This document shows positions 1 through 15,031 of a stretch of 24,832 bases of DNA, piece after piece (position 1 is the stretch's first letter; each line of letters starts with the position of its first letter). The position numbers and the translations under genes were made by a program. Source of the DNA: a virus (lineage: Duplodnaviria > Caudoviricetes); the IMG/VR virus record IMGVR_UViG_3300017766_005104, positions 1-24,832 of that record; one strand, written 5' to 3'. A model generated the notes under the pieces. That model saw nothing but the letters and a program-made list of their open reading frames with translations. It was not told the DNA's origin and did not search any database.

Positions 1-1341
1 AAGTTTTCTATATCCACTGACTCTAATTCCACTCAAGCGTTTACTGTTGACACCTCAGGCCGAGTAGGGATTGGCCTCACGAGCCCTGCCACAACCCTAG
101 ATGTCAATGGCGACGTAACCATCGCCGACAAGATTATCCACGGCGGCGACACTAATACTGCAATTCGATTCCCCGCTGCGGATACTGTTTCGGTTGAGAC
201 TGCTGGCAGTGAACGCGCCCGCATCGACAGCTCCGGCAGGCTGTTAGTTGGCACGTCTAGTGGTGTTAGCGCAGCTTTTGTCAACAGCTCAATTCAAGCT
301 CATGGTATTACCGGTGATGCTTCTTCGGTAACTCTTTACCGCTTCACAACATCTGCAACTGCCGCTGCAACCCCACGACTTGTAATGGCAAGAAGTGGAT
401 CAGACTCCAAAGACTTTACGGTCGTCGCTAATGGCAACCGCTTGGGCCAGCTTAATTTTGTTGGCGCAGACGGAACGCAATTTATTAGTGCTGCGTCTAT
501 TGACTGCGAGGTAGACGGCACCCCCGGCACTAACGACATGCCGGGCCGCTTAGTGTTCTCCACTACCGCCGACGGAGCGAGTAGCCCGACGGAGCGGGTT
601 CGCGTCACGAGCGGGGGGTATTTTAAGGCGAGTAACAGCGGAACGTACAGAAGTACAACAGATGCATATCATGAGCTATTGCAAGATACCACTAGCACCA
701 GTTGCTTAACTTCTAGTGCTAGTAACGCAAGTTATGCCTCTTGGATTCATCAGCTAGATGCAGCGAGGGCCGCAAATACCGCGTATAGCTTTGTTGTTGC
801 AAGATCAAGCTATACAGGTTCGGCTGATAATGAATTTAACCTTCGGGGCGATGGCACAGGACTCTGCGACGGAGCCTGGACTGGCGGCGGCGCTGACTAT
901 GCTGAATACTTTGAGTGGAGCGACGGCAATCCAGATGCCGACGACCGTCGTGGTATTGCTGTAGTGCTTGATGGCGATAAGATCCGCCCAGCCCTTGCTG
1001 GCGAAGACCCCATCGGTGTGATCTCCGGCAACCCAAGCGTCGTTGGCGACTCTGCCTGGAACAAGTGGAGCGGCAAGTACCTGCGCGATGACTACGGCAC
1101 CTACATCCTTGAGGACTACGAAGTCGAGGATGAAGACGGCAATACCGTCATCCAACAGCGACGCAAGCTCAACCCTGCCTACGACCCTGACGTGGAATAC
1201 ACCTCCCGCGAAGAACGCCCTGAGTGGGATTGCGTGGGTCTGATGGGCAAGCTCCGCATCCGCAAAGGTCAGCCAACCGGAAGCCGCTGGATTAAGATGC
1301 GCGACATCAGCGATTCCGTTGAGGAATGGTTAGTTCGCTGA
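1..1341 (+). CDS. Tail fibre/tailspike protein, 5'-truncated, with C-terminal Peptidase_G2-type autoproteolytic intramolecular chaperone
   Basis: Frame 1 is open from base 1 (KFSISTDS...GRVGIGLTSPATTLDVNGD...ERARIDSSGRLLVGTSS) into the listed 385..1341 ORF. Beta-rich fibre repeats; C-terminal ADYAEYFEWSDGNP...DRRG...IGVIS...VGLMGKL motif. Confidence 0.88.
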   Translation, partial: KFSISTDSNSTQAFTVDTSGRVGIGLTSPATTLDVNGDVTIADKIIHGGDTNTAIRFPAADTVSVETAGSERARIDSSGRLLVGTSSGVSAAFVNSSIQAHGITGDASSVTLYRFTTSATAAATPRLVMARSGSDSKDFTVVANGNRLGQLNFVGADGTQFISAASIDCEVDGTPGTNDMPGRLVFSTTADGASSPTERVRVTSGGYFKASNSGTYRSTTDAYHELLQDTTSTSCLTSSASNASYASWIHQLDAARAANTAYSFVVARSSYTGSADNEFNLRGDGTGLCDGAWTGGGADYAEYFEWSDGNPDADDRRGIAVVLDGDKIRPALAGEDPIGVISGNPSVVGDSAWNKWSGKYLRDDYGTYILEDYEVEDEDGNTVIQQRRKLNPAYDPDVEYTSREERPEWDCVGLMGKLRIRKGQPTGSRWIKMRDISDSVEEWLVR

Positions 1342-1348
1342 GGCCGTG

Positions 1349-1363
1349 TAGGCCTACTCACTG
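1349..1363. repeat. Boundary site 1 (TAGG-cctactc-ACTG) of a TAGT-N7-ACTA-like motif
   Basis: Resembles the sites at 2141 and 2920; lies 7 bp after the tail fibre stop. Confidence 0.4.
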
Positions 1364-1377
1364 CGAGGCGTGGCTCG

Positions 1378-1400
1378 ACTATCTGGAATTACCGGATAGT
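1378..1400. repeat. Intergenic inverted repeat ACTATCTGG-aatta-CCGGATAGT
   Basis: 9-bp arms with one mismatch, 5-nt spacer. Confidence 0.6.
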
Positions 1401-1407
1401 GGGGCTC

Positions 1408-1510
1408 AGCATTAAAAAGCGGCAGGATGTCACCCCCGCCGCTCTTGCGACTGGATCTCACCCCAGCCGCTTTGCTGCTTTCTGTTCAGCCGCAGCACTG
1501 TAGCACATGG
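1408..1510. repeat. 103-bp direct repeat, copy 1 (copy 2 at 2558-2660)
   Basis: Manual ungapped alignment at offset 1150 shows 7 mismatches in 103 bp. Confidence 0.97.
1412..1490 (-). ncRNA. Putative ~80-nt small RNA, copy 1: two hairpins with GUGAGA and GUGACA loops, ending in a U-tract
   Basis: On the minus strand: TGTG-C-TACAGT extended -10 (1507-1497), 9-bp stem (1470-1447), 10-bp stem (1443-1418), then TTTT. Stems close fully only with minus-strand G-U pairs. Confidence 0.65.
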
Positions 1511-1516
1511 TATGGT
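1497..1516. promoter_or_regulatory. Back-to-back extended -10 elements: minus TGTGcTACAGT (1507-1497) and plus TGgTATGGT (1508-1516)
   Basis: Both match TGnTAnnnT; they point to the sRNA and to the 1570 gene respectively. Confidence 0.5.
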
Positions 1517-1569
1517 GGGTGGGCAGGCGTGCGTCAACACCCTGCCCTGGCCACAGTTCCCTAGAAACC

Positions 1570-1926
1570 ATGACCCAAGAATCTTATAGGCATCCCATAA
1601 CCCCACCGCCGTGGCGAGTGCAGGAGTGGGGAGAAGAAGCTGCTCGCCGTCAATACACAGGTTCCGAAACAGACCAGCACATTGCGACTGAAGCCGCCCA
1701 ATGGGGCGCAGACACTGAGCTAGAGGCGTGCTGTCTGTGGGTGAACTCCGTTGATGACGACGATTGTTTTGGTGCAAACCTCCGCGCTGCCCGCCGCCCC
1801 AAGCCGCCGAGTTTGAAGGAGCAGGCCATTGCAGAGCTGGACGACGCTGTGATGAGGGGTGACTGCATCACTGTGTCTGAGGCACTGCCCACCATCCGCC
1901 GCGCCTTGGAGCAACTCGATGACTGA
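1570..1926 (+). CDS. Phage hypothetical protein, 'HPITPPP...AAQWGAD.ELEAC...RRPKPPSLKEQA' family (paralog of 2164..2556)
   Basis: ATG at 1570 (MTQESYRHPITPPP) aligns with the paralog's start; four shared blocks. Confidence 0.8.
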   Translation: MTQESYRHPITPPPWRVQEWGEEAARRQYTGSETDQHIATEAAQWGADTELEACCLWVNSVDDDDCFGANLRAARRPKPPSLKEQAIAELDDAVMRGDCITVSEALPTIRRALEQLDD

Positions 1927-2143
1927 CGAACCGTATGTGGGTGAGTTTCGCTGGCAGGGAGAGCCTCAGAACTCTCCTGTTGAGCTATGGGACGGAAAAC
2001 AGTGGGTACTTGTAGGCGGTTCCTTGCCAACGGATGAAGAGCTTTTTGATCTGGCGGAGAAGTACGCAGATGACAACGGGTTGCTAGGGCTGCACAACGC
2101 GCCTGGTTTTGCCCGCGCCGTTCTTGATCGCTGGGGCAAGTAG
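1919..2143 (+). CDS. Hypothetical protein (PTDEEL...FARAVLDRWG type)
   Basis: ATG at 1919 overlaps the end of the upstream gene; its TAG stop lies within boundary site 2. Confidence 0.7.
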   Translation: MTDEPYVGEFRWQGEPQNSPVELWDGKQWVLVGGSLPTDEELFDLAEKYADDNGLLGLHNAPGFARAVLDRWGK

Positions 2144-2155
2144 TCATTACCACTA
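2141..2155. repeat. Boundary site 2 (TAGT-cattacc-ACTA)
   Basis: Perfect 4-bp inverted arms around a 7-bp spacer; its TAG is the upstream stop codon. Confidence 0.5.
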
Positions 2156-2163
2156 ATCACACC

Positions 2164-2556
2164 ATGACGCAACAACATCCCATCACCCCACCGCCAGAGC
2201 TTGTGCAGCAGTGGACTGCTGACATTTTCGGAGACGCCCAAGAGTGCTTCTCTTGCGAAGTCGAGTTCGCCAACAGAGCCGCCCAATGGGGAGCCGACAT
2301 GGAGCTGGCGGCCTGTTGCAGACAACTCACGGATCCCAAGTGGTACGACGAAATCAAGAACTTGCGTGGGCCCTTCCGCGCAGCAGAGCTCCGCGCCATC
2401 CGCCGCCCCAAGCCGCCAAGCTTGAAGGAACAGGCGCTGTCGCTCGTTGAGCAGCACGAAGACGGCTGGCGGCCGTCACCCAAGGACTGGGACACCATCC
2501 GCCGCGCATTGGAGGCACTGCCCGACAGCATTGTCGTATTTCCTTCTCAGTGTTAA
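2164..2556 (+). CDS. Phage hypothetical protein, paralog of 1570..1926
   Basis: MTQQHPITPPPELVQQW...AAQWGADMELAACC...RRPKPPSLKEQAL...TIRRALE. Confidence 0.82.
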   Translation: MTQQHPITPPPELVQQWTADIFGDAQECFSCEVEFANRAAQWGADMELAACCRQLTDPKWYDEIKNLRGPFRAAELRAIRRPKPPSLKEQALSLVEQHEDGWRPSPKDWDTIRRALEALPDSIVVFPSQC

Positions 2557-2557
2557 A

Positions 2558-2660
2558 AGCATTAAAAAGCGGCAGGATGTCACCCCCACCGCTCTTGCAA
2601 CTGGATCTCACTCCAGTCGCTTTGCTGCTTTCTGATCAGCCCCAGCACTGTAGCACACGG
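2558..2660. repeat. 103-bp direct repeat, copy 2
   Basis: 96/103 identical to 1408-1510. Confidence 0.97.
2562..2640 (-). ncRNA. Putative twin-hairpin small RNA, copy 2
   Basis: Same promoter, stems, loops and U-tract as copy 1; all four in-stem substitutions keep pairing. Confidence 0.65.
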
Positions 2661-2733
2661 CAGGTATCAGCATGTATTACCTGAAAACAGGAATCAGCTA
2701 ATACTTGCCCGCTTACGACCCGTCTCAATTTCC

Positions 2734-3001: not shown

Positions 3002-3313
3002 ATGGCCACCACCTTTACGTGGGGTATCAACACCCTTGAACGCGAAACCGACGACGGCTTTGTGTTTACCGCTCACTACACCGTCAACGCTGAAGACGGC
3101 ACCTACTCGGCTGGCGCATATGGCAGCATCGGCTTTCAGCGCCCCGACAACCTGATCCCGTACAACCAACTCGACGAGCCAACTGTGATCGACTGGGTCA
3201 AGGAAGCCCTAGGCGGTGACGAAAAAATTGCCGAGATCGAAGCTGCACTGCAAGCTCAACTTGACGAGCAGCGCCATCCGTCTAAAGCCGCTGGTGTGCC
3301 TTGGGCATCCTGA
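3002..3313 (+). CDS. Conserved tail-fibre-associated phage protein (DUF7936-like)
   Basis: TFTWGINTLER...AHYTV...GAYGSIG...IPYNQL...VIDWVK..LG...GVPW pattern, recognised from memory. Confidence 0.7.
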   Translation: MATTFTWGINTLERETDDGFVFTAHYTVNAEDGTYSAGAYGSIGFQRPDNLIPYNQLDEPTVIDWVKEALGGDEKIAEIEAALQAQLDEQRHPSKAAGVPWAS

Positions 3314-5409: not shown

Positions 5410-5634
5410 CTACCGGCGCCGCTGCACCTCACGCCAATAGCGGTCCTCAACCTTGCCCTGCCAAGCCTGGTACTGCGACATACGTGCCGACGCCCGAGCT
5501 CGTTTCTTCCGCAGGTTCCAGTCATAAAAAAACTGGGCATCCTCCACCAAGCGATGAAGGAGCCCATTTGGTAAACGCTCTGCGATTCGGTTAAGCCGAG
5601 CCAACAACCGAGAACGCAGCTCGCTCTCGTCCAT
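5410..5634 (-). CDS. Hypothetical basic protein
   Basis: ATG 5634 coupled (TGATG) to the AbrB-like stop. Confidence 0.6.
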   Translation of the reverse strand: MDESELRSRLLARLNRIAERLPNGLLHRLVEDAQFFYDWNLRKKRARASARMSQYQAWQGKVEDRYWREVQRRR

Positions 5635-6014
5635 CAACCAGCCACAGCCACAGACTTACTGGAGGCTTTCACGCTCGCTGCAGATTGAGGCACAAGCCGA
5701 ATTGCATCATCCTCGATCACGATCTGCAGTTCATCGCCCGGCTCCACACCAAACTTCTCCGAGTACGTCTTGCCTACCAAAATCACACCATTACGATGGA
5801 CGGTAGTCATAAACTGCGCTGCTTTACCAGGCTTCTTGCTGGTTTTCAGCTTTACACCTTTAGCTTCAAGCAGTGCCTCGTGCAACTTACCGATGAGCAA
5901 GCGCTCATTACCCTTATCCGTATTGCGCACGTAGCCAGCCTCGCGAGCTAGCTCGGCTTGATCCATGTCCGCATTGGCTTTCACAAATGAAAGCAGGTCT
6001 TGCCCAGTGAGCAT
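5634..6014 (-). CDS. abrB: Cyanobacterial-type AbrB-like transcriptional regulator (cyAbrB)
   Basis: MLTGQDLL..VK...LAREAGY...EALLEAKG and TTVHRNGVILVGKTY...PGDE..I......IRL match the cyAbrB pattern; ATG at 6014. Confidence 0.85.
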   Translation of the reverse strand: MLTGQDLLSFVKANADMDQAELAREAGYVRNTDKGNERLLIGKLHEALLEAKGVKLKTSKKPGKAAQFMTTVHRNGVILVGKTYSEKFGVEPGDELQIVIEDDAIRLVPQSAASVKASSKSVAVAG

Positions 6015-6055
6015 GAGTGGTAAAACGCTACGAAAACAGCGTATCACACAAAGCT

Positions 6056-8260: not shown

Positions 8261-11014
8261 TCAACCCCAATCGGTGTCCTCCCAATCTCCGTAGTCCTGC
8301 GTAGAACCGGGGGTCCCATATATCTCCGAGGCCGTGTCCAAAACCTCCGGCGTATTTTCCGAAACCGCTGTGCTGGAGAGGGTTTCAGCCTCGGAGGTTT
8401 TGGACAACCCCTCTGTGTGTCCAAAACTGTCCGAAACCTCTAGGGGCATTTCGGCAGCGTTTTCCACAAAAGTTTCCACAGGCAGCTCGGTCTCGTGCGT
8501 CTCAGTTGAGACTGTGCCTTGCTGAACTGTTTCGACCTCGGAGGTTTTGGACACTTCGGGGTTTTGGACAATTTCGTCTGTACCCTGTCCAAAACCCAAA
8601 TCCCTTCCAGCACAAGGAGTTCCAAAGAAAGAAGGAGGGTTTTGGACACTCCGACCCTCGTATATAGGGGCTTTGACAGAAAAACCCACCAGAGGGCGCC
8701 CCCCTTTCTGTCCCGGCTGTCGCACCCGAGTTTCTTCCACGAGGCCGGCAACAACCCACCGCTGCGCCCACCGCTTAACCGTCTTCTCACTGACGATCGT
8801 CCCCGGCCCCCTACGCCCCGCCAGCCGGCTGTTGAGCGCGTAGCGCAGCTCCTTAGCTGTCATCGGCGCTTCCGCTTCCTTGAGGATCCCGAGAACGATC
8901 GTCCGTGGCGTCTCATCGCCCTGCCCACCGTTCTCTCGGGTCACAGTCGGGGTGAGATCCTCAATGCTCAGCGCTTCCTCAATGTCCTCCTGCACCAGGA
9001 AGCGATCCCCACCCCGCATGCCCCGACTCTTGTCGATTTCGAGGATGAGCGCATGATCCCCGTACTGAGCGCGCTCCTCGTCCGTCAGGTCCTTCAGTTC
9101 CCAGGTCTCGTGCACCGCATTCCGCAGCGTGTCTGTGCCGCGGAACTTCGTCCCGTCCTTGGTGTTGTGGTGGATCCACAGAAATGTCGTCGGTGGGAAC
9201 GCCGTCCCGTTCTCCCGCGCCAAGCGGTACAGCGTGTTCGAGTACTCCTTCTCGTACTCCTTGGCCGCAATCATCGTGCTCACCGACGTGAGTGAGTCGA
9301 CTACCACCAGTACTGGCTTGAGCTCTTGCAGCCACCGCAAGAGCACCCTGTACTGGCTTTGTTGCCACTGCGGTTTGAATCGGAACCAGGTATCGGCACC
9401 GGTCGAGTCAATCCCCTGCTGATCCAGGTACTCCGCATAGTCCGTCATCGACATGTCGTTGCCGATGAACAGCACATTCCCCGAGACCGTCGGCTCGACC
9501 GTCAGCCCCCGCACCTTCATCGGCAGCTTCTGGCCCACGATCTTGGCCAGCAGCACGGCAAGGCGCGTCTTACCCATCCCGCCCCTTGCGTGCAAGAGAA
9601 TCGAGCTCGGTGCCGACACAAAGTCCGGGATCAGGTAGTCCCGCTGCCCGCGCATCTTCTCCTGCCACTGCGGGTCTTCCTCTACCTGCTCCTGGTGCAG
9701 CAGGAACCGCTCGAGCGCTGACTCCACCTGCGGCCCCGACTTGTACACGTGCGTCAGCCCGGAGTCCCGCACCAGCTCCATCAACTGGTAATGCGCGAGC
9801 TCGGCATTGTCGTACCCGTTGATGATCTTCTCGGCTGCCGTAAAAAACTCCTGCCCCGATAGCCGTTTCAGCGGTGCATCTTTGATGGTGACCTCGGTCG
9901 CCGTTGCGCACGCCGGGTAGTCGTACCCCAGCTCCACGGCCAGCTCCGCCACATAGGCCTCGAGGGCGGGCCCACTCGGACGCCCAGCGTGCATGTCCTT
10001 GGTGCGGATCTTGTGGACGAAATCGAGCACGTCACCACCTACACCACACGCTTTGCAGTCCCAGCAACCGGTCTCTTCCGCGTACTGGAATGTCGTCCCG
10101 CTCTGCCCCCCGTGCCACGGGCAGCCGCTCATGCGCTGGGGCTTATCTCCACCGCGGCTCTTCCACCCGTACCGGTCAAACACCTCGTGGTTGAACACCA
10201 GATCAGCCAACCGCGGCCGCAGCAGCGACTGCACCTCCTCCTTGAAAAACCACCCACGGATCTGACGTGGCGGGACAGCTGTCTGCCCCCCGAGCTCGCT
10301 CATCACCTCCTTCTGCTCAGCCTCGGACAGCCATTGCACCGGCTTCCGATGTGGGCGCAGCACATCCAGCACCCACTGCGGTGCCGTCTCTACCTTTCCG
10401 CCGTTGTAGTTGAGGAACCGATAGGGCTGCTTTGTTTCCGGGTGTGGTGAGCCAGGGACCACGCTCTGACAGGCGTTGAACCGCAGCACCACCTCTTCGT
10501 AGGCAGCCCCACTGATCGCGTCCACATCACCACCGGCACCCCGGTTTGTATCCCCATGCCCCAGGTGCCACTGCCCATCGTCCGTGCGCAGGATCAAGGT
10601 CTTCACATCCCCGAGCTCGGGAACCAAACGCTTGGGTACCTGATACAGGATCTGCCGACGCCCGGGCTTACCCGAAGTCCACGACATGGTCCGCTCCTCG
10701 CCATAGACCTCGTACTCCGATCCCGCCACTTCGCGATAGCGCTGATCGGCGTCAGGCCCATCGATGTCGAGGGCTATGAGTCCCCCCGAGAACGAACCTG
10801 TCACCACACCCAGGCCTACGTATTCCTGCCTGAGCTGGTAGGCCGTCATGCACTCAATCCGCGTCAACGGCTTAGTGCTCCACTCCTTTACAAAGGTGGC
10901 TTTTCCCGCAACTGGCACAAAAGCCCATCCATCTGGAAATACATCACGTCGTAGCAATTCGATAGCTCGCCCCTTTAAGAGATCCGAGCTATTGCCATTG
11001 AGCTCTTTGTCCAT
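8261..11014 (-). CDS. Multidomain replication protein: Prim-Pol N-terminus, CHC2-type zinc finger, RecA-like AAA_25 helicase, wHTH, low-complexity tail
   Basis: GLGVVTG...LIALDIDG and QSVVPGSPHPET..Y; CPWH...WDCKACGVGGDVLDF; Walker A ARGGMGKT; Walker B LVVVDS; IHHNTKDG..FRG. Confidence 0.9.
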   Translation of the reverse strand: MDKELNGNSSDLLKGRAIELLRRDVFPDGWAFVPVAGKATFVKEWSTKPLTRIECMTAYQLRQEYVGLGVVTGSFSGGLIALDIDGPDADQRYREVAGSEYEVYGEERTMSWTSGKPGRRQILYQVPKRLVPELGDVKTLILRTDDGQWHLGHGDTNRGAGGDVDAISGAAYEEVVLRFNACQSVVPGSPHPETKQPYRFLNYNGGKVETAPQWVLDVLRPHRKPVQWLSEAEQKEVMSELGGQTAVPPRQIRGWFFKEEVQSLLRPRLADLVFNHEVFDRYGWKSRGGDKPQRMSGCPWHGGQSGTTFQYAEETGCWDCKACGVGGDVLDFVHKIRTKDMHAGRPSGPALEAYVAELAVELGYDYPACATATEVTIKDAPLKRLSGQEFFTAAEKIINGYDNAELAHYQLMELVRDSGLTHVYKSGPQVESALERFLLHQEQVEEDPQWQEKMRGQRDYLIPDFVSAPSSILLHARGGMGKTRLAVLLAKIVGQKLPMKVRGLTVEPTVSGNVLFIGNDMSMTDYAEYLDQQGIDSTGADTWFRFKPQWQQSQYRVLLRWLQELKPVLVVVDSLTSVSTMIAAKEYEKEYSNTLYRLARENGTAFPPTTFLWIHHNTKDGTKFRGTDTLRNAVHETWELKDLTDEERAQYGDHALILEIDKSRGMRGGDRFLVQEDIEEALSIEDLTPTVTRENGGQGDETPRTIVLGILKEAEAPMTAKELRYALNSRLAGRRGPGTIVSEKTVKRWAQRWVVAGLVEETRVRQPGQKGGRPLVGFSVKAPIYEGRSVQNPPSFFGTPCAGRDLGFGQGTDEIVQNPEVSKTSEVETVQQGTVSTETHETELPVETFVENAAEMPLEVSDSFGHTEGLSKTSEAETLSSTAVSENTPEVLDTASEIYGTPGSTQDYGDWEDTDWG
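8335..8648. repeat. Iteron-like cluster of TGTCCAAAACC in both orientations, putative replication origin
   Basis: Perfect copies at 8335(+), 8396(-), 8543(-), 8560(-), 8586(+), 8638(-); 10/11 copies at 8418 and 8428. Confidence 0.8.
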
Positions 11015-12749: not shown

Positions 12750-13135
12750 GCGAAACCACCCCTATCCACGCTCTGGTCAGCAACGTCATCGGAGGCTCCC
12801 TCCTAGTGCAGCACGCCAACGCGCTGGACATCGATCCCGAGCTACTCGCTGACCCCAGTAGCCCCGAGTCCTTCGAGCTCTACCGCAAGCTCACCACGCA
12901 CCTAGGCCTCGACTTTGAAGTCGCCGCTTCGCACGTTCTGAGCTCCGTGACAGCACTGCTCATCGACGCCGAGGTCAAGGACCACAACGTCCGCTACCTC
13001 GCCACCGCGCTCTGGAAAATACTCGGCGATCCTGCCCATAACGGCGACGAACCCCCACCGATCTACAACGAAGCCGCCAAGGCGATGTACGCCTGGACCC
13101 TGACCCTTCTCCACCCCACTTTTATCCGCCCCTGA
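12746..13135 (+). CDS. Hypothetical protein
   Basis: ATGA-coupled 129-aa ORF with typical codon usage. Confidence 0.75.
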   Translation: MSETTPIHALVSNVIGGSLLVQHANALDIDPELLADPSSPESFELYRKLTTHLGLDFEVAASHVLSSVTALLIDAEVKDHNVRYLATALWKILGDPAHNGDEPPPIYNEAAKAMYAWTLTLLHPTFIRP

Positions 13136-14140: not shown

Positions 14141-15031
14141 ATGTCGGACCTCATCTCCCAGTACCTCAGTGACATCTCCCGGCATCCGATCCTCTCGCGC
14201 GAAGCCCAGCTCCGTCACGCCTATCGCATCCGCGCATGGGTCGACTACACCCCACCCGGCTCCACCGAGCCCGACCGCTCCGCCGCCCCCGCTCACATTG
14301 CACGCCCCGGCAAGCGCTCCCTGGACATCATGGTGCGAACCAACCTGCGCTTAGTTGTCCACCTCGCCAAGCGCTATCAGAACCGAGGCCTCGAACTCAG
14401 CGATCTGATCCAGGAAGGCAGCCTCGGTCTCATCCGAGGCATCGAGCTCTTTGACCCAACCCGCGGATACGCCTTCAGCACATACAGCTATTGGTGGATC
14501 CGCCAATCTATTTCACGCGCAATCTATAACTCTTCCCGCACAATACGGCTACCAATAAACGTGCAGGATCTTTCTACCAAGATCAAACGCGCTATGCACA
14601 CGCTGACTGCCTCTTACGGCAGGCCCCCTTCTATCGATGAGCTCAGCACCGAGCTCGAGCTCCCCCCTGAGCGCATCACCGAGACCTTGATCAGCTGCAC
14701 CATTACCAGCTGCACCTCCATTGACGCCCTATGTCAGCTCTCTGATGCCCCCATCTCCGAGGTACTCAGCTCTGACAACCCGACCCCGTCAGAAAGCCCA
14801 GAACTCACCGTATCCCTCATCGAGCGCGAAGAGCTTCTACAAAAAGCCCTCGCGACCCTCGACCCTACGCAACTCCTTGTGGTCCAAGCGATCCACTTTG
14901 AGCAACGCAGCCGCCACGAGCTATCCGACGAGCTCGGTATATCCCGCTATTGCATCTCATCGATCTACAAAAAAGCTATGCACAAACTAAGAGTAGAGCT
15001 CACTTATAGTTGGGATGCGTTTAACGAGTGA
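14141..15031 (+). CDS. RpoD/SigA-family (group 2-like) RNA polymerase sigma factor
   Basis: Region 1.2 YLSDISRHPILS; region 2 NLRLVVHLAKRY..RGL...DLIQEG..GLIR..E.FDPTRGY.FSTYSYWWIRQ; RTIRLP; region 4 HTH. Confidence 0.95.
   Translation: MSDLISQYLSDISRHPILSREAQLRHAYRIRAWVDYTPPGSTEPDRSAAPAHIARPGKRSLDIMVRTNLRLVVHLAKRYQNRGLELSDLIQEGSLGLIRGIELFDPTRGYAFSTYSYWWIRQSISRAIYNSSRTIRLPINVQDLSTKIKRAMHTLTASYGRPPSIDELSTELELPPERITETLISCTITSCTSIDALCQLSDAPISEVLSSDNPTPSESPELTVSLIEREELLQKALATLDPTQLLVVQAIHFEQRSRHELSDELGISRYCISSIYKKAMHKLRVELTYSWDAFNE

Follow-up and report, generated by a model that had tools for sequence, protein, structure and literature searches.

What does a 103-nt element encode that stands twice behind the tail-fibre gene of a phage, and why would the phage carry it? 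The window considered here is an entire viral contig of 24.8 kb (24,832 nucleotides), whose genes include the end of a tail fibre, an endolysin, a DNA polymerase, a primase, a sigma factor and an AbrB-like regulator. Because the genes adjoining the twin-hairpin element have their homologues mainly in Synechococcus phages, we infer a picocyanobacterial host. The protein-coding surroundings of the element are as follows:

385..1341, plus strand: tail-fibre gene, 3' part, with an autoproteolytic chaperone domain (PHROGs tail fibre and pre-neck matches, Pfam Peptidase_G2); left anchor of the island
1570..1926, plus strand: phrog_32006 small ORF, with a PHROGs match only
2164..2556, plus strand: phrog_32006 paralogue; all-helical model without an informative fold match
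3002..3313, plus strand: phrog_7802 / DUF7936 gene with homologues in Synechococcus phages; right anchor of the island

The small ORFs at 1570-1926, 2164-2556 and 2734-2922 belong to a family of small, helical cyanophage proteins that is very large, with about 8,000 clusters (7,987 relatives listed), and whose members have their end segments in common and often stand in tandem. Neither Pfam nor named-fold matches were found for this phrog_32006-like family, and the structural model of phrog_32006 (pLDDT 75) matched unnamed viral proteins only. Elsewhere in the window, the AbrB-like regulator and the sigma-70-family factor lie at 5634-6047 and 14141-15031, and the 3' part of the primase-helicase ORF contains short direct and inverted repeats (8328-8413, 8382-8571).

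A repeat search placed the two copies of the element at 1408-1510 and 2558-2660 (93% identical), so that both the positions and the seven differences reported in an earlier note on this DNA were found again. The differences lie at 1438, 1449, 1462, 1467, 1485, 1492 and 1508. The first four are stem positions, and the analysis confirmed the note's claim that all four swap Watson-Crick and G·U pairs in a way that preserves pairing on the minus but not on the plus strand. Between the copies, neither the loops nor the 11-nt extended -10 differ. The minus strand folds with z-scores of -4.9 and -3.9 for the two copies (0 of 200 shuffles as good), and the plus-strand fold is weak (z -2.2 and -1.6). 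The predicted anatomy is:

1497..1507, minus strand: extended -10 promoter of copy 1 (predicted); a conserved -35 is absent
1414..1491, minus strand: predicted 78-nt RNA of copy 1, its start inferred from the -10 spacing
1447..1470, minus strand: hairpin 1 of copy 1, 9 bp, with a six-base loop of the U-turn type and no U-tract of its own
1410..1443, minus strand: hairpin 2 of copy 1 (1418-1443, 10 bp, same loop type) plus U-tract; predicted intrinsic terminator
2647..2657, minus strand: extended -10 promoter of copy 2 (predicted)
2564..2641, minus strand: predicted 78-nt RNA of copy 2, with hairpin 1 at 2597-2620 and the terminator hairpin at 2568-2593

A terminator scan of the window listed the terminator hairpin of copy 2 and not its equivalent in copy 1. 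The sequence of copy 2 is identical to the element in six viral loci from an IMG/VR pattern scan; copy 1 reached 119.8 bits with the element model, of whose training set it is itself a member. In the Rfam scan of the window, a step the earlier note had suggested, the element matched no family, and the sole match at E<=1 was an unrelated weak one at 13079.

Homologues were gathered by five IMG/VR pattern scans and one partial metagenome scan, in which 33 of 118 loci were true homologues. Together, they gave 50 distinct full-length variants from viral and metagenome contigs, 49 of them parsable, and the minus strand was the better fold in all 50. In the alignment of the 39 variants aligned first, 96.0% of the stem cells were paired, against 90.9% in shuffles (0/500). 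Two-sided changes affect three pairs, a count not above that of shuffles in the same alignment (325/500), and two of the three merely divide the two subfamilies of the element. Judged from these alignments, two-sided changes in the stems are few events, and the strand asymmetry, with nine G·U against one A·C among the stem pair types on the minus strand, is the better evidence for RNA pairing. Fold z-scores, pairing in homologues, promoter and terminator thus agree with the selected, structured minus-strand element that had been proposed at the outset.

The pattern of variation also bears on a simpler origin, a terminator that was captured once and has since been carried as a neutral passenger by island recombination. 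A mean identity of 88% across the variants and the small number of two-sided changes would suit such a history. We nevertheless give it very little probability, since the unpaired stem cells of the 49 variants are limited to loop-proximal pairs plus one C·C, while the spacer after the -10, the 5' leader and the linker vary freely; moreover, the two subfamilies are spread over unlike genomes.

Conservation ends at the TG upstream of the -10 and just past the U-tract. Positions 1, 2, 4 and 6 of the -10 hexamer are kept in 49 of 49 variants and the TG in 48 of 49, and the hexamers of three variants shift towards the sigma-70 consensus. The 5' leader of the predicted RNA is mostly unpaired and starts with five invariant bases, after which length and sequence vary. 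Hairpin 1 lacks a U-tract and is kept in both subfamilies; termination alone is therefore an insufficient explanation of the element. By these predicted features, the element is built like an independent gene whose RNA product would be about 78 nt long, and it is very probably transcribed. Contigs from several of eight sequencing runs cover it, which as contigs carry neither strand nor RNA ends; runs with small shares were set aside as evidence of habitat. The two hairpins are alike at a period of 28-29 nt and seem to descend from a single 28-nt unit that was duplicated in tandem long ago; in locus L218, a single fused unit is present.

The most constant part of the RNA is its loops. In all 98 loops, position 2 is U, position 6 is A and position 4 is a purine (its rare variants included), and positions 1 and 3 are G in 97 each. 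Position 5 is G in 43, C in 38 and U in 17 loops and A in none. The base 3' of the loop is always U, with a varying pairing partner. The earlier statement that loops and promoter are invariant thus holds between the two copies; among homologues, it fails for loop position 5, which varies freely. The six-base loops are compatible with a UNR U-turn closed by a G·A pair: according to the available part of PMC4105743, such turns have a U-N-purine core and are often closed by a sheared G·A pair.

Because the central base of the loop is free, a base-pairing seed is unlikely. A small RNA acting in trans on mRNAs of host or phage by base pairing would fit the size and anatomy, which are those of cyanobacterial sRNAs, and could use the unpaired leader with its invariant first bases. 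We regard this as highly improbable in view of the variable leader and loop centre and of the search for trans targets within the window, where the best duplexes lay within or barely beyond 8 shuffles. One 12-nt complement to the top of hairpin 1 lies at about 8948-8959 on the minus strand, in the primase gene; it hardly exceeds shuffles, and the bases concerned include paired ones.

A loop of the same pattern, closed by G·U, is also found at position 633 of the 16S genes of two picocyanobacteria, which we take to be the '690 loop' of helix 23, bound by uS11 and IF3. The phage RNA might accordingly imitate this rRNA loop and titrate a translation factor or a loop-directed nuclease. Position 5 of the rRNA loop, however, is A, the base found in 0 of 98 phage loops, and the surrounding stem is unlike that of the element. 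In addition, similar letters occur at several rRNA sites, so that the loop motif is generic. An rRNA mimic is therefore very unlikely.

Similar loops were also found on hairpins that follow genes in Mucilaginibacter and in a further Bacteroidota-like contig, and on one picocyanobacterial terminator; these look-alikes were picked by pattern and by HMM are not homologous to the element. Since terminator-like hairpins of these Bacteroidota, and of one genome of picocyanobacteria, carry the loop as well, stability alone may be the reason for its conservation. The Mucilaginibacter and Bacteroidota-like loci (L300, L304, L309, L349, L402-L410, L612) hold dispersed elements of two or three hairpins with the same loop behind genes; in G005, two hairpin elements of the Bacteroidota type flank a weakly HEPN-like two-gene cassette. 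An RRM protein, common to cyanobacteria and Bacteroidota, was considered as ligand and rejected, as the available text of PMC11697453 shows no such loop motif and the Bacteroidota element occurs in 1 of 61 family genomes. Likenesses to an anticodon loop, boxB, a -35 box and ANTAR were dropped because register or consensus did not match.

The element is present once in 40 of 40 related records searched whole, including all eight that are at least 90% complete. The duplication by which the earlier note had characterised the gene is therefore a local event peculiar to the present contig. Each of the two window copies carries a different one of the two common flank types, which suggests that they are likely positional alleles joined by recombination. 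Both lie in a hypervariable island, in which we recognise a slot running from a conserved junction after the tail-fibre stop to a conserved plus-strand promoter-leader cassette, with interchangeable fills. Its parts in the window are:

1349..1359, plus strand: left arm of the slot, a conserved motif at the junction behind the tail-fibre stop
1378..1400, no strand assigned: near-palindromic hairpin; second slot module, seen with and without the element
1508..1569, plus strand: right arm of the slot, made up of a promoter-like site in divergent orientation (1508-1516) and the leader of the following ORF, with the leader hairpin at 1521-1547
2659..2709, plus strand: usual flank of the copy-2 allele, a long imperfect hairpin immediately upstream of its promoter

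The hairpin at 2659-2709 shows G·U-preserving variants and always adjoins the promoter of the copy-2 allele. Among 34 distinct slot fills, from a sample biased towards the element, 16 hold it by pattern, as does 1 of 14 fills in the phrog_7802 sample. Elsewhere the slot is empty or is filled by a plain terminator, by long hairpins or by a different structured RNA, and in L722 by a tRNA. The element is thus optional: it occurs in 4 of 80 loci among the closest phrog_7802 relatives and in 2 of the 52 with the tail fibre in view. Element-bearing records span 31-87 kb and 47-61% GC. An integrase-like ORF lies on the plus strand of the same island, 0.7-1.8 kb from the element, in L014, L015, L143 and L160, and in S-LBS1 an annotated integrase sits between the tail fibre and the phrog_7802 homologue.

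The earlier note had also considered an antitoxin travelling with the adjacent small genes, which the comparison of genomes did not uphold. No protein family is common to all ten element-bearing genomes compared; the commonest neighbour, the phrog_32006-like family with its roughly 8,000 members, is found in nine and also exists without the element. As the partner is not fixed and this family occurs without the RNA, a role as antitoxin for the adjacent ORFs is unlikely. No toxin ORF follows the RNA and its terminator on the same strand; the downstream genes lie on the opposite strand, and conserved minus-strand frames there are shadows of plus-strand ORFs.

In all 49 contexts with a gene match (of 50 contexts), the element is opposite in strand to the tail-fibre and island genes, at varying positions. 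U-turn loops start antisense pairing in plasmid systems. The constant antisense orientation would thus suit a cis-antisense RNA whose loops pair with a late transcript reading through and lower the genes behind the tail fibre, and with a cis target a free loop position would be tolerable. Such a role is quite unlikely, though, for 76 of the 80 related loci do without the element, its place among the island ORFs varies, and the predicted leader of the island mRNA does not include the complementary stretch, which is located upstream of the plus-strand promoter.

A different kind of partner appears in the slot of relatives. Rfam scored abiF above threshold directly 3' of the element and on the opposite strand in L218 (954-990), L134 (2104-2140), L079 (1951-1987) and L014 (1052-1088). 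Altogether, abiF or an abiF-like pattern abuts the element in 10 of 48 contexts, of which five have the canonical form and the other five a variant unscored by Rfam; in the 80 phrog_7802 loci the pattern occurs twice, both times alongside the element. The two modules are independent, as 5 of the 120 viral abiF loci listed carry the element, abiF stands alone in the slot of L802, L804 and L818, and the Rfam scan of the present window found no abiF. In the available text of 10.1101/2025.04.15.648962 and PMC12737573, abiF RNA is described as the antitoxin of the HEPN nuclease AbiF, acting in trans by protein binding, and the former models the C. difficile RNA with two motifs, one per subunit of the AbiF dimer. 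The RNA has also been reported in cyanophage S-CREM1 (PMC9964418, available part).

Abi_2 is encoded in 10 of 201 genomes of the alpha-carboxysome family of G115 (picocyanobacteria). At four of these ten loci, an upstream hairpin is alignable to the phage abiF module, with 33 invariant columns and an 8-nt insertion; the Rfam abiF model did not score the hairpins at host Abi_2 loci. In the abiF-bearing phage records (16-70% complete), Abi_2 was found in 0 of 5. The slot thus seems to acquire antitoxin RNA that comes without its toxin and has relatives at host loci.

Some further observations concern abiF itself. Three kinds of hairpin stand upstream of Abi_2 genes in picocyanobacteria (L923, L924, L925, L929; L921, L922, L930; L926-L928), one of which matches the phage abiF module bar the 8-nt insertion. 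At the 3' end of the element, L024, L106, L115, L128, L154 and L013 hold abiF-like modules with a similar flanking stem and different loops, possibly specificity variants. In viral contigs, abiF is common (at least 120 loci, L801-L920), and often a tRNA or tRNA-like sequence, not a toxin gene, stands directly after it.

Taking anatomy and neighbourhood together, we propose, at a probability of roughly 0.45, that the element RNA is a trans-acting, protein-binding decoy for counter-defence; this role, one of the two suggested in the earlier note, gains indirect support from the known antitoxin RNA in the slot of relatives. Host RNA polymerase would transcribe the optional phage module early into the 78-nt RNA, and both look-alike loops would bind one host protein in trans and neutralise it. 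The bound protein would be a defence effector, most likely an RNA-controlled anti-phage toxin or nuclease, and the two hairpins might offer one site per subunit of a dimer, as the two abiF motifs do on the AbiF dimer. A wider proposal, which we hold to be possible though doubtful, is that the slot serves as an exchangeable store of counter-defence RNAs (captured abiF, tRNA-like RNAs and the twin-loop RNA), in which the twin-loop RNA would be the decoy for a picocyanobacterial defence system that is under RNA control and has yet to be described.

The main rival to the decoy is a portable promoter-terminator cassette acting in cis. Here, the back-to-back promoters would serve the small plus-strand ORFs, the hairpins would block backward transcription into the tail-fibre gene, and the homology would promote shuffling. 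The element would then resemble PeSL of T4-like phages (PMC4122927, available text), a small cassette at recombination joints of a hypervariable region. The plus-strand promoter-like site overlapping the region in one flank type, the plain terminator with the same tail in the slot of other relatives, the hypervariable island with the one-hairpin recombinant L218 and the terminator-like hairpins capped by the loop elsewhere all speak for a cassette. We still consider it unlikely. The element is single-copy per genome and PeSLs are multi-copy; in the available text of PMC4122927, the PeSL stem-loop lies upstream of a promoter on the same strand, whereas the promoter of the element aims into the hairpins and away from the ORFs. 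Furthermore, the right-arm cassette of the 1508..1569 type is common in relatives without the element, the commonest flank type lacks the plus-strand site although the minus-strand -10 is constant, and hairpin 1 has no U-tract.

By the tests made on sequence and predicted structure, the element lies outside abiF, type III loci, CsrB, PeSL and Yfr. CsrB and RsmZ carry several GGA motifs in loops. The element likewise repeats one motif in hairpin loops, terminator included, but the loop census holds no GGA and there are two sites only. Phage RNA decoys include the pseudo-ToxI of PhiTE and RNA anti-CRISPRs. Like these and like orphan antitoxins (treated in general in the available text of PMC11825919), the element is toxin-free and repeat-like, lies in an accessory region and is proposed to titrate a defence protein; it consists of plain hairpins, whereas pseudo-ToxI and the anti-CRISPRs are pseudoknots or CRISPR repeats. 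With type III and AbiF toxin-antitoxin loci it shares short tandem repeats, seen in two similar hairpins 28-29 nt apart, but not a toxin ORF downstream on the same strand. The abiF RNA (RF03085; RCd22 / AbiFr) is also a small hairpin RNA of the same phage slot, and RCd22, as far as the available text describes it, has two repeated motifs and acts in trans on a dimeric toxin. In contrast to abiF, the element has no Rfam match, a different sequence, its own terminator, the opposite strand and a tight six-base loop in place of a large one, and a cognate toxin was not found. Yfr1 and Yfr2 (PMC6778093, available text) are similar in size, host group and the presence of two stem-loops; Yfr1 is conserved in a single-stranded motif between the stems and the element in its two hairpin loops. 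The absence of Yfr1 and Yfr2 motifs recorded in the earlier note is thereby supported, as it is by the lack of an Rfam match.

Searches for a host counterpart covered several sets of genomes. The element model gave weak matches in 11 of 151 cyanobacterial genomes and 5 of 151 family genomes; the 12 and 5 loci listed were terminators or chance, and one of these matches (L535) has the same loop. Two patterns matched 27 and 39 of 401 host genomes; among the loci listed, 1 of 27 for the first pattern is an intergenic hairpin with the loop of the element, and 0 of 30 for the second match the element model. A counterpart beside a toxin gene was not found in the 151 + 151 genomes by model or in the 401 by pattern, in samples that are partial and for RNA-controlled systems that are rare (Abi_2 in 10 of 201 genomes). 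A pattern scan of 44 of 64 parts of GTDB returned at least 120 loci, none homologous (best nhmmer E 0.12). Searching GenBank phages with both subfamilies by blastn gave short chance matches only, and the model found the element in 0 of 5 cultured cyanophages with shared neighbour genes. The literature searched on cyanophage small RNAs, phage RNA decoys, structured RNAs, AbiF and orphan antitoxins does not describe it. The RNA family has no match in Rfam or among GenBank phages; the automated catalogue of 8,495 IMG/VR candidates (PMC10690425, available part) may contain it.

Few phage counter-defences made of RNA are known. The present family, which is not listed in Rfam, occupies a modular slot that also takes a known antitoxin RNA, and the flanks of that antitoxin RNA match those at host toxin loci. 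Should the RNA be a cassette only, the gain would still be an RNA motif with good support and a way in which the island is shuffled. If it is a decoy, its ligand would reveal a new picocyanobacterial defence system, for which the RNA could be used as bait, and the slot would give a list of further RNA candidates. Unlisted structured non-coding fills are found in L015/L063, L019/L707/L709, L698/L727/L766, L083, L206 and L722; among them are long hairpins, a tRNA-Leu-like gene and one plus-strand RNA equipped with a promoter-like site of its own.
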